Origin: Oscillospiraceae bacterium | GTDB lineage: Bacteria; Bacillota; Clostridia; Oscillospirales; QAMX01 | DNA: 64,000 nt | Reading direction: 5' to 3' | NCBI GenBank assembly: GCA_015067715.1 | Contig: SVLY01000006.1 | Coordinates: forward strand, 3,679 to 67,678 | In this document: positions 7,190 through 14,667 of the stretch, piece after piece | How positions within the stretch are numbered: the stretch's first letter is position 1 | Layout: every line of letters starts with the position of its first letter | Notes under the pieces: generated by a model | Seen by the model: the letters and a program-made list of their open reading frames with translations, nothing else | What the model was told of the DNA's origin: nothing | Databases searched by the model: none | Translations under genes and position numbers: made by a program

Positions 7190-7761
7190 ACGTGACAGTC
7201 CAAACCAAAACCTACGCTCTTCCTCCCGTTGACCGGGCAGAGGCTCTGCGTTATGCGGGCTGTCCCGGGGCAGACGGTGAGCTGGAAGAGATTCTTGAAA
7301 ATTCAATTGAGCTCATAAACGAAAAGCTCAGCCCCCGGGTGTGCTGGAGCACCCTTCCGGTCACTCTGACCGGGAAACGCTGTGACTTTGGGGCGTTTTC
7401 GGTGGACTCTGCAGACCTTGCGGAGAGTCTTTCGGGCTGTACCCGGGCGGTGGTCTTTGCCGCCACGGTGGGCGTTGATGCGGACAGGCTCATCATTCGC
7501 TACGGGAGGCTTTTGCCATCCCGGGGGGTCATGCTCTCCGCCGTTGCGGACGAGAGGATCGAGGCGCTCTGCGATGAGTTTTGCTCTGAGTTTGGCTCTG
7601 TACGTCCCCGTTTCAGCCCGGGCTACGGCGATCTGCCCCTTGAGACCCAGCAGGATATTTTTGCCCTGCTGAGTTGTGAAAAGCACATCGGTCTCACCTT
7701 GAACCAAAGCCTTCTCATGAGCCCGACAAAATCGGTCACCGCCATCTTCGGGCTGGAATGA
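7186..7761 (+). CDS. B12-dependent methionine synthase activation-domain protein
   Basis: RFSPGYGDLPL and MSPTKSVTA motifs, located between metF and metH. Confidence 0.85.
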   Translation: MNVTVQTKTYALPPVDRAEALRYAGCPGADGELEEILENSIELINEKLSPRVCWSTLPVTLTGKRCDFGAFSVDSADLAESLSGCTRAVVFAATVGVDADRLIIRYGRLLPSRGVMLSAVADERIEALCDEFCSEFGSVRPRFSPGYGDLPLETQQDIFALLSCEKHIGLTLNQSLLMSPTKSVTAIFGLE

Positions 7762-10253: not shown

Positions 10254-11546
10254 TCAGCCGACCTCGGCGGCGTCGGTATCGTCCGGGATCTCGACCTTGG
10301 TAATGTCCGCGCCGATCCGGCGGAATTTTTCGACGATATCCTGATATCCGCGCTCGATATGGCTGATATTGTCGATCTCGGTGCGGCCCCTGGCGCAGAG
10401 ACCGGCAATTATCATGGCAACGCCGGCGCGAAGGTCACAGGCGGAAATGTTTGCGCCGGTGAGCTCGTTAACACAGCGAATGATGGCGGTCTTGCCGTCC
10501 ACGGTGATGTCCGCGCCCATGCGGCGAAGCTCGTCCACGTAGCGGAAGCGGTTATCGTAGACCCCGTCGGTGAGAATGCTGGTGCCCTCGGCAATGCAGA
10601 GACAGCTTGCTATCTGAGGCTGCATATCGGTGGGGTAACCGGGGTAGGGCAGAGCGGTAACGTGGGTAGCGCGAAGCTTTCTGTCAAGGGGACGGGTGAC
10701 GCGGATGTATTCGTCGCCCTCAGAGAAGTCAACGCCAAGTTCGGCAAATTTGGTGGTTATGCATTCAAGGTGCTTGGGAATGATGTTGTTGATAATAACG
10801 TCACCGCCGGTGGCGGCAACTGCGGCAATAAAGGTGCCGGCTTCGATCTGGTCGGGGATTATGGAGTAGGTTCCGCCGTGGAGCTTTCTGCCGCGGATCT
10901 TGATAAGGTCGGTGCCTGCTCCGCGAATGTCCGCGCCCATGGAGTTTAAGAAGTTTGCAACGTCCACGATGTGGGGCTCTTTGTTGGCGTTTTCGATAAC
11001 GGTCTGACCGGGGGCGCAGGCGGCGGCGATCATAACGTTGATGGTGGCGCCGACGGTGCGCTTGTCAAAATAAACGTGACCGGAGCGGATACCGTCCTCG
11101 GTGGTGGCGATTATTGAGCCGTTTTTAACGGAGACCTCAGCGCCCAGAGCCCGGAAGCCCTTAATGTGCTGGTCAATGGGTCTTTCGCCAAAGTCACAGC
11201 CGCCGGGAAGTCCGGCTTCTGCCCAGCCAAAGCGGCCGAGCATTGCGCCCACAAGGTAGTATGAAGCGCGCATTTTGCGCATAAGCTCACAGGGGGGAGC
11301 GATCTTCTGAATATTGGTGGAGTCTATTTCGACCTCGTAATCCCCAAGGCGGCGGACGACGGCGCCCATATGCTGGAGAATTGAGAGCCAGAGGTTAACG
11401 TCGCTGATGTTGGGCACGTTGTCGATGCGGCAAACGCCGTGGACAAGAAGTGCCGCAGGAAGAATGGCGACGGCGGCGTTTTTAGCGCCGGAAATGTCCA
11501 CGCGGCCATTCAGCGGGTTCCCTCCGTTAATGATATATTTATTCAA
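10254..11546 (-). CDS. murA: UDP-N-acetylglucosamine 1-carboxyvinyltransferase
   Basis: GAKNAAV, RASYY, LPGGCDFGERPIDQH and DLRAG motifs. Confidence 0.95.
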   Translation of the reverse strand: MNKYIINGGNPLNGRVDISGAKNAAVAILPAALLVHGVCRIDNVPNISDVNLWLSILQHMGAVVRRLGDYEVEIDSTNIQKIAPPCELMRKMRASYYLVGAMLGRFGWAEAGLPGGCDFGERPIDQHIKGFRALGAEVSVKNGSIIATTEDGIRSGHVYFDKRTVGATINVMIAAACAPGQTVIENANKEPHIVDVANFLNSMGADIRGAGTDLIKIRGRKLHGGTYSIIPDQIEAGTFIAAVAATGGDVIINNIIPKHLECITTKFAELGVDFSEGDEYIRVTRPLDRKLRATHVTALPYPGYPTDMQPQIASCLCIAEGTSILTDGVYDNRFRYVDELRRMGADITVDGKTAIIRCVNELTGANISACDLRAGVAMIIAGLCARGRTEIDNISHIERGYQDIVEKFRRIGADITKVEIPDDTDAAEVG

Positions 11547-11633
11547 CGGTTTTCCCTTCTTTCGGAAGTTGTTCTGTTACCGTTCGTATCCTTAAATGTT
11601 ACGAAAGTGTTACGGCCATATCACGCCGTGTAG

Positions 11634-11662
11634 ATTATACCATCTGATTTGGTTCTTGTCAA
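11634..11662 (-). promoter_or_regulatory. Sigma-A promoter of murA
   Basis: Minus strand TTGACA, 17 nt, TATAAT with extended TG. Confidence 0.8.
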
Positions 11663-11772
11663 TAGACCTGAGAATTATTTTGATTTTGTTCCGATATTTT
11701 CCCCTGCGTACTGGACAAACGGCAAAAAAAAGTGTATCATTATAGTACCCTTTTTTCGGAGGAAGATACACC

Positions 11773-12351
11773 GTGAAAAATAAAGGTACAAAGACGTCCC
11801 TGTGGACGCTGTTCATAACCTTTTTCAAGCTCTCGGCATTTACATTTGGGGGCGGATACGCCATGCTTCCCCTTTTGCACGAGGACTGTGTTGAGCGCAA
11901 AAAGTGGATAACCGACGAGGAAATGCTGGATATGCTGGCAATTTCCGAGTCCACCCCCGGCCCCTTCGTTGTAAACGCGGCCACCTTCGTGGGCTACCAC
12001 CAGGCCGGCGTTCTTGGGGCGGCGGCATCTACCTTTGGCGTGGCTCTTCCCTCGTACATTGCCATTATGATCATTTCCGTGCTGTTCACCCTTTTCCGGG
12101 ACAACGTCTGGGTGGACGCGGCCTTCCGGGGCATCCGGGCGGCGGTGGTTGTGCTTATTATCAACGCCGTTGTAAAGCTCTCAAAAAAGCTGAAATGGAA
12201 CGTTCTCTGGATAGCCGTTGCCCTTGGCGCATTTTGCGTGAGCCTGTTTTTGGACATCAACATCATCTTCGCCCTCATCGCCGCCGGTATCGTGGGCGTC
12301 GTGTGGACGGTCATTTCCGGCCGCCGCATGAACAAAAAGGCGGGAAAGTAA
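11773..12351 (+). CDS. Short-chain chromate transporter (CHR family)
   Basis: FTFGGGYAM and SESTPGP motifs. GTG start after GGAGG. Confidence 0.88.
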   Translation: MKNKGTKTSLWTLFITFFKLSAFTFGGGYAMLPLLHEDCVERKKWITDEEMLDMLAISESTPGPFVVNAATFVGYHQAGVLGAAASTFGVALPSYIAIMIISVLFTLFRDNVWVDAAFRGIRAAVVVLIINAVVKLSKKLKWNVLWIAVALGAFCVSLFLDINIIFALIAAGIVGVVWTVISGRRMNKKAGK

Positions 12352-12415
12352 ATAGCAGTATTTCAAGTAGATAAAACCCCGGAGGAAAGTGTAGTGCTCT
12401 TAACGGAGAAATTAT

Positions 12416-12450
12416 AAAAAACTGACAGGTCAAACCGACCTGCCAGTTTT
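12416..12450. terminator. Terminator-like hairpin inside the left end of the island
   Basis: aaaaactgacaggtc-aaacc-gacctgccagttttt. Confidence 0.65.
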
Positions 12451-12531
12451 TGCTTATTGGTGGGGTCTGGGCAACTGCCCGGTTAACCGCATCCGGTGGA
12501 CAGCCGGACGCTCTGCTTGCCATGCGCGCTA

Positions 12532-12563
12532 ATCGTAGGGCGGGGGCTTGCTCCCGCCGAAAT
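12532..12563 (+). repeat. GTAG-type REP, extragenic copy
   Basis: atcgtagggcgggggcttgctcccgccgaaat is the exact reverse complement of 13724-13755. Confidence 0.85.
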
Positions 12564-12580
12564 CCAACAGACTGTGAATG

Positions 12581-12609
12581 TTGATAATTGATTGTATCTG
12601 TGATATAAT
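12581..12609 (+). promoter_or_regulatory. Sigma-A promoter of the cargo gene
   Basis: TTGATA, 17 nt, TATAAT with extended TG. Confidence 0.65.
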
Positions 12610-12646
12610 CAATTCAAGAAAATTGACTTTGATAAGGTAAAAGAGT

Positions 12647-13264
12647 ATGAATGGAAGACATTTATTTCTTACATCTAGCGGGTTATCATGTGAAATGAAG
12701 AAGATGTTTTTTGATATTATCGGAAAGCGTCCCGAAGATGTAAAAGTGCTTTGCATCCCTACGGCTGGAATCGAAACAGATGGAGCCAGAGAAGGAATAG
12801 CAGTATGTTTACACGAGCTTTCGTTAATGGGGATTCATTATGAAAATATATTAGTATATAATCTGGAATTATTACTTTCAAAAGATTACAAGAGAACATA
12901 TTCGGCATATATTAAAGACCCTTTTCCGATCACCAGACTGTTGACTGTTGAGGAAATAGGGGCGTTTGATGCTGTTTTTGTCAGTGGTGGTGATAGTTCT
13001 ATACTGTGTCGTGAAATGGTACGCACAGGATTCGACGAAGTGATTGCAAAGGCAATTACGAATGGTCTTGTGTATGTTGGCATCAGTGCAGGAAGTATGT
13101 ATGCGGCAGGAAACTTAGACGAAGGATTACATATTATTGATAATCCGATAATTCCCCATTGGAATGGTACAAAAACATTTGAATTGCCATATGATAGAGA
13201 CGAGGTTAAGCTTATTGATGGACAAGCAGTTTATATTGAAGATGATTATATTGGTCTAATGTAA
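12647..13264 (+). CDS. Peptidase S51 / class I glutamine amidotransferase-like protein
   Basis: LFLTSSG, IPTA, FVSGGD, YVGISAGS (nucleophile elbow) and IIPHW motifs. Clearly AT-richer than the flanking genes. Confidence 0.8.
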   Translation: MNGRHLFLTSSGLSCEMKKMFFDIIGKRPEDVKVLCIPTAGIETDGAREGIAVCLHELSLMGIHYENILVYNLELLLSKDYKRTYSAYIKDPFPITRLLTVEEIGAFDAVFVSGGDSSILCREMVRTGFDEVIAKAITNGLVYVGISAGSMYAAGNLDEGLHIIDNPIIPHWNGTKTFELPYDRDEVKLIDGQAVYIEDDYIGLM

Positions 13265-13371
13265 ATGAAAAGAATTACCAAATCCAACATACCGAATAGT
13301 TTACCGTAGCATCCGTTGTGCTTGCTGCGGTTGCTAACTAAGAGAAAGCGGCGGGATCACGCCTACTTCTC

Positions 13372-13872
13372 TTATTCTTTTGAATATAGCTTGTCCAATT
13401 CCCATTGCTTTGGGTTATTCGCAATATATTCCGCAATCTCATGATAGTCTTCGCGACCGCGAATCACATGCTCATAAAACGAATTTTGAAACAGCTTATC
13501 AATAGGCTGCACCTTTTTACACTGTCTGGTTGTAAGAGATTTATACGCACAAACGATATCCATGATCTTAGGGCGGGGGCTTGCTCCCGCCGTTTCCTCC
13601 AACAATAGGATCGCATGAATATGGTTGGGCATGATCACATATTGGTCAACTTTCAGCGAAGGATATCTTTGCTCCAGCAATACCAACTGCTCCTGCGCAA
13701 TTTGACCGTATGCGGTATATTGAATTTCGGCGGGAGCAAGCCCCCGCCCTACGATACGGGATAACAGGCACCGTCTGCTTTGGGTGCAGATGGTAATAAA
13801 ATACGCACCGGCGGTGCTGTAATCATAGTGATCCAGGCGAGGGTGTTTTCTTTTCGGTAAGTTATTCTCCAT
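13372..13872 (-). CDS. REP-associated tyrosine transposase (RAYT, Y1/HUH superfamily)
   Basis: RKHPRL, YFITICT, IMPNHIH (HUH), FQNSFYEHVIR and YIANNP (catalytic Tyr). ATG at 13872. Confidence 0.88.
   Translation of the reverse strand: MENNLPKRKHPRLDHYDYSTAGAYFITICTQSRRCLLSRIVGRGLAPAEIQYTAYGQIAQEQLVLLEQRYPSLKVDQYVIMPNHIHAILLLEETAGASPRPKIMDIVCAYKSLTTRQCKKVQPIDKLFQNSFYEHVIRGREDYHEIAEYIANNPKQWELDKLYSKE
13569..13592 (+). repeat. REP copy inside the RAYT ORF
   Basis: tagggcgggggcttgctcccgccg; encodes AGASPRP on the minus strand. Confidence 0.85.
13724..13755 (-). repeat. REP copy inside the RAYT ORF, inverted relative to 13569-13592
   Basis: 32/32 identity to the extragenic REP; encodes IVGRGLAPAEI. 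Confidence 0.85.
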
Positions 13873-13968
13873 AAATATCACCAAGGCTATTATATAGCAA
13901 GATCCGCAGTTCACAATGCCGACTGCGGATTTTTCCATTAAGAACACGAAGTAAAACTCCGGGGTTTT

Positions 13969-14667
13969 TTATCTTATTGTATAGCCGTTCAGTTTCTTTC
14001 TCCGCTCCCGCCAGTCGGGGATGTATTTTTCGACCTCGGCGTGGAAGCTTTTTGAGTGGTTTGGATGGAGGAAATGGCAGAACTCGTGGACGATAACGTA
14101 TTCTGCGCACTCTGTTGGCACGGAGATAAGAGCCGTGTTCAGGGTGACGGTGTTTTTCGAGGGCATACAGCTTCCCCAACGGGAGGTCATCTTTTTGAAC
14201 CGGAGCTCCGGAAAGGGGAATAAACCGTTGAAAAGGGGGTATAGCCCAAGGCAGAGCCCGGTGAGCTCAAGCCTGCACTGTCCCGAAAGCCAGCTCTCCG
14301 CCGCGCATCTTACTGCCGCGGCAGAGCCGAATTCCGGCAGACCCAGCCAAAGCACGTCTCCGGAGAGTGAAAAAACGGGTCGCTCAGACCAGTGCGGATC
14401 AAGGGTTAGCTCACGGCCGTGGTAGAAAAGCTTTTCGGATACGGGGGCAGGGGAGCTTTGACCAAGTCGCAAAAGGGCGTTGCGGACGAAGTCCGACCTC
14501 TGTAAAAGCACGGCTCTGGCCTCGAAAAAGCTCATCCATGACGGATATGAAACGCATACGCGTCCGTCTTGACGGACGCGTATGTTTATGTTTTTCACTT
14601 TTTTGGGGGTGAATTCGCAGGCCGCAGAGATATCTCCAAAGCTTACCGTTTCGGTACGGGCGGTCAT
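13969..14667 (-). CDS. YgjP/DUF45 (SprT-like) zinc metallopeptidase
   Basis: KNINIRV, MTSRWGSC and YVIVHEFCH...NHS motifs. Confidence 0.85.
   Translation of the reverse strand: MTARTETVSFGDISAACEFTPKKVKNINIRVRQDGRVCVSYPSWMSFFEARAVLLQRSDFVRNALLRLGQSSPAPVSEKLFYHGRELTLDPHWSERPVFSLSGDVLWLGLPEFGSAAAVRCAAESWLSGQCRLELTGLCLGLYPLFNGLFPFPELRFKKMTSRWGSCMPSKNTVTLNTALISVPTECAEYVIVHEFCHFLHPNHSKSFHAEVEKYIPDWRERRKKLNGYTIR

Follow-up and report, generated by a model that had tools for sequence, protein, structure and literature searches.

The window considered here is a 64-kb stretch of contig SVLY01000006.1 from an Oscillospiraceae bacterium. Within it, the gene of an S51 (PepE-like) peptidase stands between chrA and the gene of a REP-associated tyrosine transposase (RAYT), close to the foot of a repetitive extragenic palindromic sequence (REP), and is bordered by a short direct repeat (Table 1). 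Foreign in origin and equipped with its own promoter, the S51 segment was inserted at the REP's 3' foot. The site which it entered was a REP doublet (REP doublet forming hairpins, REPIN), namely a decayed copy of the REP-spacer-REP segment contained in the RAYT reading frame.

Table 1. Features of the insertion locus, in window positions.
Feature	Position	Strand	Description
Composite repeat ending in REP	12418..12560	+	chrA terminator hairpin, second hairpin type and REP
Left direct-repeat copy	12560..12572	+	10/10 and 12/13 identical to the right copy
S51 module insert	12570..13279	+	710 bp (720 bp with one repeat copy), 35.9% GC
Sigma-70-type promoter	12581..12609	+	TTGATA-17-TATAAT with upstream TG; 11/12 consensus matches
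Module 5' palindromic motif	12612..12640	+	degenerate here; family consensus roughly cagTTCGAyAAAyyGGrATTTG, from aligned left and reverse-complemented right flanks of S51 loci
S51 (PepE-like) peptidase gene	12647..13264	+	205 aa; Pfam PF03575, 57 bits (cut-off 23.9)
Dual-reading region, module 3' motif or REPIN foot 1	13275..13300	+	includes the 19-mer and, at 13280-13292, the right repeat copy
19-mer of the right copy	13280-13298	+	contains the right 10-mer; 16/19 to RAYT interior
Right part of decayed REPIN	13280..13366	+	foot-1-like 19-mer, spacer of ~50 nt, foot-2-like GAGAAAG, degenerate REP(-)
RAYT (TnpA-REP-like Y1 HUH protein)	13372..13872	-	166 aa from ATG; 45.3% GC
REP inside RAYT reading frame	13568..13594	+	encodes loop after HUH motif (TAGASPRP)
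REP inside RAYT reading frame	13728..13753	-	encodes VGRGLAPAE; foot 1 aaattcaatataccgcata next on coding strand

The S51 insert, its borders and its relatives

The extragenic REP (12535-12560, plus strand) consists of GTAG followed by an imperfect GC-rich hairpin. Its 21-nt core GGGCGGGGGCTTGCTCCCGCC recurs exactly in the window, at 12538-12558 (+), 13571-13591 (+) and 13729-13749 (-), that is once outside genes and twice inside the RAYT open reading frame (ORF); against these three matches, 100 shuffles gave none. The REP runs into the 10-mer AAATCCAACA at 12560-12569, and a second copy is located 720 bp further on, after the S51 gene, at 13280-13289. The first-pass annotation had pointed out this pair, and the 10-mer occurs nowhere else in the window; its expected count was 0.18, and two copies were reached in 2 of 100 shuffles. 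A repeat search extended the direct repeat to 13 nt, with 12 of 13 positions identical between 12560-12572 and 13280-13292.

The right 10-mer is preceded by ...TTACC and followed by TACCGAATAG. It runs on as aaatccaacataccgaata, which is identical at 16 of 19 positions to the REP foot aaattcaatataccgcata inside the RAYT gene. The likeness, also claimed before, is real: local alignment of 13265-13371 to the RAYT interior gave a score of 15, which only 3 of 1000 shuffles reached. A degenerate inverted REP(-) is found where it had been annotated, at 13349-13366, with 87% identity to the REP over 13349-13363. The insertion point lies one base beyond the foot of the REP hairpin; the 3' end of the RAYT gene is about 100 bp away. 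Among the 65 exact REP copies of the genome, this is the only one followed by the complete 10-mer. Metagenome contigs from four runs of four studies (sheep gut, feces, an unlabelled sample and bovine gut) connect the REP through the S51 gene to the RAYT side with 0-4 differences; since the junctions recur in this way, the insertion is stable in the populations sampled.

The foreign origin of the insert follows from its low GC content compared to the genome (54.6%; chrA 54.7%, ygjP 54.2%, RAYT 45.3%), from the lack of a close homologue in its own family, from the presence of 39 related loci in other bacteria, and from the congener G001, which has nothing of it. The earlier description as an AT-rich gene with its own promoter holds, and this promoter is near-consensus. 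An S51 match was present in 10 of the 35 genomes of the family, this one included, the best outside it being 44% identical with partial coverage. Of 627 candidates in a large protein collection, 521 were relatives; many of these have a length of exactly 205 aa and are 68-92% identical, the closest (P0002-P0010) at 86-92%. Species genomes contained 40 S51 loci, 39 of them at 60-79% identity, in Faecalimonas, Ruminococcus, Faecalibacterium, Collinsella, Prevotella, Blautia, Lachnospiraceae and others. At the DNA level the likeness to these loci is limited to 12601-13277 at most. The insert is present once in the genome. A donor search with 12520-13400 gave no match in plasmids or phages, viral contigs contained neither an S51 relative nor an exact promoter match, and a metagenome scan found nothing closer than 78%.

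The nearest relatives of the protein in the PDB are peptidase DR_1070 and Peptidase E (E about 1e-9), its GISAGS aligning with GCSAGS of DR_1070. Assignment to the family was based on the PF03575 score and on a nucleophile Ser in a GxSxG-type turn, both of which are present. A palindrome of 13+13 nt at 12586-12614 (AATTGATTGTATC / GATATAATCAATT) overlaps the spacer and the -10 box of the S51 promoter and is operator-like, and a similar palindrome occupies the equivalent promoter position at locus L033.

In other bacteria the S51 unit spreads as a sharply bounded module of 0.68 kb. For one variant, 87 fetched loci were at least 99.84% identical over the whole gene and fell into 17 upstream and 16 downstream context groups. 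The records of these copies (L036-L043, L101-L180) are titled Faecalibacterium, Ruminococcus, Blautia, Collinsella, Prevotella and others. Upstream, 81 copies had 150 nt of flank: 47 keep the majority flank and 34 diverge, 27 of the latter at 17-29 nt before the ATG. Downstream, 26 of 73 such copies keep the majority flank and 47 diverge, 35 of them at 25-33 nt after the stop codon. The breakpoints coincide with a small palindrome, AAAT-N4-RTTTG, one copy of which lies in the 5' untranslated region; in the main clade another, inverted and extended (CAAATTCCARTTTRTCGAAYAG), follows the stop codon. Genes for large serine recombinases, TnpV, Mob_Pre, an IS91-type Y2 transposase with a tyrosine recombinase, a group II intron reverse transcriptase and XRE regulators, all typical of mobile elements, adjoin these units.

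Four copies (L158, L156, L147 and L042) have taaattggaatttgac as their 5' motif in place of taaatcggagtttgac; since taaattggaatttgac corresponds to the reverse complement of the 3' motif, this hints that sequence has been exchanged between the two. An RNA stem formed by the 5' motif with the 3' motif was considered and rejected for lack of covariation (8.1 vs 7.4, see below). Among 25 distinct S51 loci, apart from the present one only L053 and L055 had a comparable repeat between the upstream and 3' flanks, and theirs is unrelated in sequence; because it is so rare, the repeat marks this particular event and does not belong to the module in general.

The REP doublet and the RAYT gene

When the 720 bp are removed, the sequence reads REP(+), foot 1, spacer, foot 2 and a decayed REP(-), which is the layout of the intragenic pair of RAYT. 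The earlier proposal that removal would rebuild a REPIN-like doublet resembling that of RAYT is borne out in this respect, the more so as the same layout is found in a second copy on contig C54 of the same genome. The extragenic REP with its foot and the RAYT-internal segment 13715-13755 form an inverted repeat of 41 nt with 93% identity. Foot 1 of the doublet, aaatccaaca followed across the junction by taccgaata, corresponds to aaattcaatataccgcata in RAYT, and foot 2 reads gagaaag vs gaggaaa. The copy on C54, at about 7660-7755, contains foot 1 (AAATTCAATATACTGCATACGG), an internal deletion of 78 nt, foot 2 and an intact REP, its first REP being reduced to CCG. The right flank of the insert (13280-13372) is collinear with this copy, with a score of 18 vs 8.6 +/- 1.5 and none of 2000 shuffles reaching it. 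What lies beyond the right repeat copy is best read as chromosomal sequence, and the two doublet copies suggest that the intragenic REP pair is itself the source of mobile REPINs.

The RAYT protein scores 62.6 bits with the NCBIfam profile REP_Tyr_transpos (cut-off 80) and 19.4 bits with Pfam Y1_Tnp (cut-off 23), in both cases below the cut-off. An alignment of 33 homologues showed conserved HIH and FYEH motifs and placed it in a Clostridia family with two variable loops, which are encoded by the inverted pair of the cognate REP. The genome contains 65 exact copies of this GTAG-headed REP, and 70 with at most two mismatches, with the doublet at the 3' side of the RAYT gene. In-frame REPs inside tnpA-REP genes are given as a feature of subclass 2.4 in the available part of Quentin et al. 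2018 (PMC6006769); phylogenetic placement aside, the present gene has the in-frame intragenic REPs of that subclass, two inverted copies lying in its ORF.

The REP, at up to two mismatches, was not found in the two congeners searched, G001 and G002 (88% and 92% complete), and occurs in 8 copies each in genomes of two other genera of the family (G016 and G017). It was also found inside RAYT genes of three other families (L073-L075), whose proteins are 57-59% identical to the present one. Given its presence in these other genera and RAYT genes and the failure to find it in the congeners, either the REP sequence is far better conserved than the enzyme or the pair has moved horizontally. The RAYT ORF of L075 (G166:C3) contains three in-frame REP copies, two of them in tandem in the second loop, where they give rise to a repeated peptide (AQCRAGACSRRDD...). 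Contigs C101, C45 and C53 of the window's own genome hold five more RAYT-like matches of 36-46% identity, one with an in-frame TAG; since their variable loops differ, several REP/RAYT systems coexist in this genome.

Routes of insertion

The arrangement is best read as a crossover, by short homology or by a recombinase, between the 3' palindromic motif of the module and the look-alike foot of the REPIN; we hold this reading tentatively, at a little less than even confidence. Before the insertion a REP doublet stood just 3' of the RAYT gene, and the 720-bp AT-rich module, made up of promoter, 5' motif, S51 gene and 3' motif, is a cargo unit carried by many mobile elements of gut bacteria. We infer that a circular or episomal copy of the module underwent a single crossover with the chromosome inside the stretch of 10-13 bp common to the module 3' motif and the REPIN foot, either as an illegitimate event at short homology or by the action of a recombinase at a pseudo-site. 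After such a crossover the common stretch would be present at both borders, forming a direct repeat. The junction of the 720-bp circle would then read ...GAATTACC AAATCCAACA GACTGTG.... The REP would be relevant only through its RAYT-derived foot, which resembles the module motif, and the RAYT enzyme would not be the catalyst.

What recommends the crossover is the double likeness of the segment 13275-13300, for which it can account because the module 3' motif and the REPIN foot look alike. Besides its match to the RAYT interior, this segment can be aligned, without a shift of register, to 3' motifs found at other S51 loci, its score against the flank of locus L035 being reached by 4 of 1000 shuffles. 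The RAYT-interior foot and the L035 motif are themselves alike at 16 of 20 positions, a score reached by 19 of 1000 shuffles. The breakpoints of the 87-copy variant, which gather at the module motif, speak for the crossover as well.

Several observations weigh against this crossover. The likeness of the right flank to the 3' motif is individually significant against L035 only, as for ten other loci tested 114-894 of 1000 shuffles reached the score. Taken alone, the doublet spacer is not significantly similar to the RAYT interior or to the C54 copy (361 and 466 of 2000 shuffles). Part of the repeat may be background: AAATCC, which makes up the first 6-7 bases of its left copy, is the foot of 6 of the 65 exact REP copies, and since it follows five others in the genome the repeat is less improbable than 4^-10. 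The 5' and 3' motif copies showed no locus-specific covariation, the mean score being 8.1 within a locus, 7.4 across loci and 6.3 after shuffling; because the score within a locus is no better than across loci, the motif is a shared sequence site and not a co-evolving RNA stem. It could also be a regulatory site, with breakpoints clustering there only through selection that retains it. No recombinase gene adjoins the insert, the neighbours being chrA and RAYT. No empty site, donor or circular junction was seen, although an empty site could not have been seen in the Logan contigs, all of which end within the REP. Joints of 12559 to 13728 in metagenome contigs were considered as empty alleles and rejected, as they are other REP copies with unrelated letters between them.

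Rather than having arisen with the insertion, the repeat may have existed before it or be due to chance. The donor would have carried the 13-mer on both sides of promoter and gene, and its fragment would have been linked to the REP foot by microhomology at AAATCC; the right junction proper would then lie after 13300. This is consistent with the S51 3' motif, which continues through CGAATAG in register with L035, L032, L047 and L046, with the frequency of AAATCC as a REP foot just given (6/65), and with a paralogue on contig C4 of the composite repeat on the left, which diverges directly after ...CCCGCCGA. The other S51 loci tested, however, have no comparable direct repeat upstream of the promoter, and the right flank is collinear with the RAYT-interior REPIN copy as far as the degenerate REP; moreover, the 16/19 match to the RAYT foot would have to be a coincidence (3/1000 shuffles). 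We consider a pre-existing repeat unlikely.

Capture at a chromosome break, or transposition by an enzyme acting in trans, appears quite unlikely to us. In that case the REP foot would have undergone a staggered double-strand break leaving overhangs of 10 nt, perhaps caused by hairpin extrusion, fork stalling or RAYT nicking, and a linear foreign fragment would have been ligated into it and filled in, or an unknown transposase would have inserted the fragment; the repeat would be a true target-site duplication of 10 bp. The clean 10-bp repeat which exactly borders the low-GC segment speaks for such an event, as do the bases that follow the repeat on its right, which continue the REPIN foot at 8/9, and the insertion one base beyond the hairpin foot. 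Nevertheless, a repeat search pairing 12570-12600 with 13250-13279 gave no terminal inverted repeats, the insert is single-copy, and it would have to be a coincidence that 13275-13300 resembles the S51 3' motif in register.

The interpretation originally attached to the locus was a possible capture by RAYT itself: the Y1 HUH enzyme would cleave single-stranded DNA at the REP foot and join the module to it, so that REPs would serve as docking sites for cassettes. The foreign insertion at a REP foot and the doublet as its target have stood up, but the mechanism has not, since the anatomy is unlike a Y1/HUH reaction, and we regard it as highly improbable. Insertion by the HUH 'peel and paste' route of IS200/IS605 elements produces no target-site duplication. 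Contrary to this rule, a direct repeat of 10 bp (12/13) flanks the insert. Neither a REP nor another hairpin precedes the right repeat copy (13250-13279) or lies inside the left end, the sole hairpin being the resident REP outside the insert; a hairpin on the left only argues against RAYT capture, because a two-site HUH exchange would leave one at both junctions. A RAYT homologue was found in none of 120 other S51 loci (596 kb), and the junction occurs at one of the 65 exact REP copies only, so the idea of REP sites as capture points for cassettes has no support. The comparison of homologous RAYT loci which the first-pass annotation had proposed turned out against it as well. The five closest loci (57-63% protein identity, REP with 0-2 mismatches, loci of ~3.5 kb) carry REPs inside the ORF only, and all five are free of cargo and of extragenic REPs within about 1.5 kb. 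In favour of RAYT capture are the position of the insertion, at the foot of the cognate REP and near the 3' end of the RAYT gene, and the GTAG tetranucleotide 5' of the REP hairpin, which is guide-like as for the TnpA-REP substrates in the available part of PMC6006769.

Three further candidates were rejected. Capture at REP feet in general fails, as only three foot sides of REPs fall below 40% GC, the window's own among them, and the other two (C1 and C48), like that on C2 at 40.4%, are ordinary neighbouring genes without cassettes. For a DDE transposon or miniature inverted-repeat transposable element a duplication is present as expected, but the insert lacks terminal inverted repeats and occurs once in the genome. 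An integron cassette does not agree with the neighbours chrA and RAYT, with the near-consensus promoter of the insert itself, or with borders at which no attC-type core was seen.

Returning to the crossover between module motif and REPIN foot, one may go further and speculate that gut Firmicutes possess, in the S51 unit, a new kind of minimal gene cassette. Circles of ~0.7 kb would be the mobile form, and recombination would be site-specific, at a palindromic core of 13-14 bp, AAAT-N4-RTTTG, with a recombinase of the carrier elements acting in trans, and RAYT-derived REPIN feet would be secondary attachment sites which link two separate repeat and cassette systems. We think this decidedly unlikely. 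Of the features expected of an attachment site, a core repeat is present at the window and the breakpoints of the 87 copies cluster at AAAT-N4-RTTTG; there is no recombinase at the window locus, and no circular form was seen.

Genome background and known systems

To the left of the insert, the composite repeat which ends in the REP is 80% identical to C4:9680-9821, and 92% over 65 nt; a terminator-like stem lies at 12417-12451. A search of Rfam with 11500-14100 gave no credible match. In the congener G001 the order murA-chrA-ygjP-recN is kept, and the gap between chrA and ygjP is just 291 bp, without REP, S51 gene or RAYT. After murA both this genome (window 11773-12351) and the congener have a single half-gene of the chromate transporter, two being found in tandem in other genera of the family (L003 and L005). 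Genome-wide, the REP occurs mostly within composite arrays resembling bacterial interspersed mosaic elements (BIMEs), together with at least two other hairpin types, for example at C26:25720-26778 and C30:2668-7088. In these arrays GGGGCGTCCCTACGGGC... stands upstream of the REP and GGGGATTCCCTACAGGC or TGTGAAGGCACA... downstream, and many contigs end there.

REPINs were reportedly described by Bertels and Rainey as REP doublets which are mobilised as a unit. The doublet of the window shares with them two inverted REPs, a short spacer and a position next to RAYT; unlike typical REPINs, it has feet that agree with coding sequence of RAYT, a gene interrupts it, and one of its arms is decayed. 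The S51 unit, in turn, is comparable to an integron cassette in containing a single gene in ~0.7 kb, in the variety of its contexts, in breakpoints that fall at a short imperfect palindrome at either end, and in its short border repeat. The core site of integrons has the motif GTTRRRY. In contrast, the S51 module is devoid of integrase, attI and such a core and has its own promoter, and its hosts are mainly Firmicutes mobile elements with serine recombinase, TnpV, Mob or IS91-type genes. A limited literature search for S51 peptidases on mobile genetic elements found nothing related.

That REPs are targets of insertion sequences is already known, as far as the available parts of the sources go, from Tobes and Pareja 2006 (PMC1525189) and from work on IS110/IS621-type elements (PMC11208160, PMC12288879), and the same holds for intragenic REPs in RAYT genes (PMC6006769). 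As in those insertions (PMC1525189, PMC11208160, PMC12288879), the REP of the window is the landing place of foreign DNA. Compared to the elements in the available text, the present insert differs in being a 720-bp single gene without transposase, bridge or seek RNA and terminal repeats, and no REP-targeting enzyme was identified. The REPtron of TnpA-REP subclass 2.4, as covered by the available part of PMC6006769, likewise has an in-frame inverted REP pair in the ORF and GTAG-headed REPs dispersed in the genome; the difference here is a cargo gene within an extragenic doublet that copies the intragenic pair, of which no mention was found in that part. The novelty is therefore modest and consists of a transposase-less, self-promoted cargo gene in a REPIN with a clean repeat scar, of a REPIN that is a copy of the RAYT intragenic pair, and of the bounded 0.68-kb S51 module.

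A bare cargo gene within a REP doublet, together with its clean repeat scar, is unusual, and it provides a precisely datable insertion event in an uncultured lineage of gut or rumen Clostridia. The side results, namely the REPIN copies of the RAYT interior and the S51 unit, may outweigh the claim from which the analysis started. If the crossover between module motif and REPIN foot is true, the landing site would have been set by chance sequence likeness and not by the REP enzyme. The S51 unit, which is nearly identical across bacterial phyla and breaks at one small palindrome, points to an undescribed shuffling of single genes among the mobile elements of gut bacteria.

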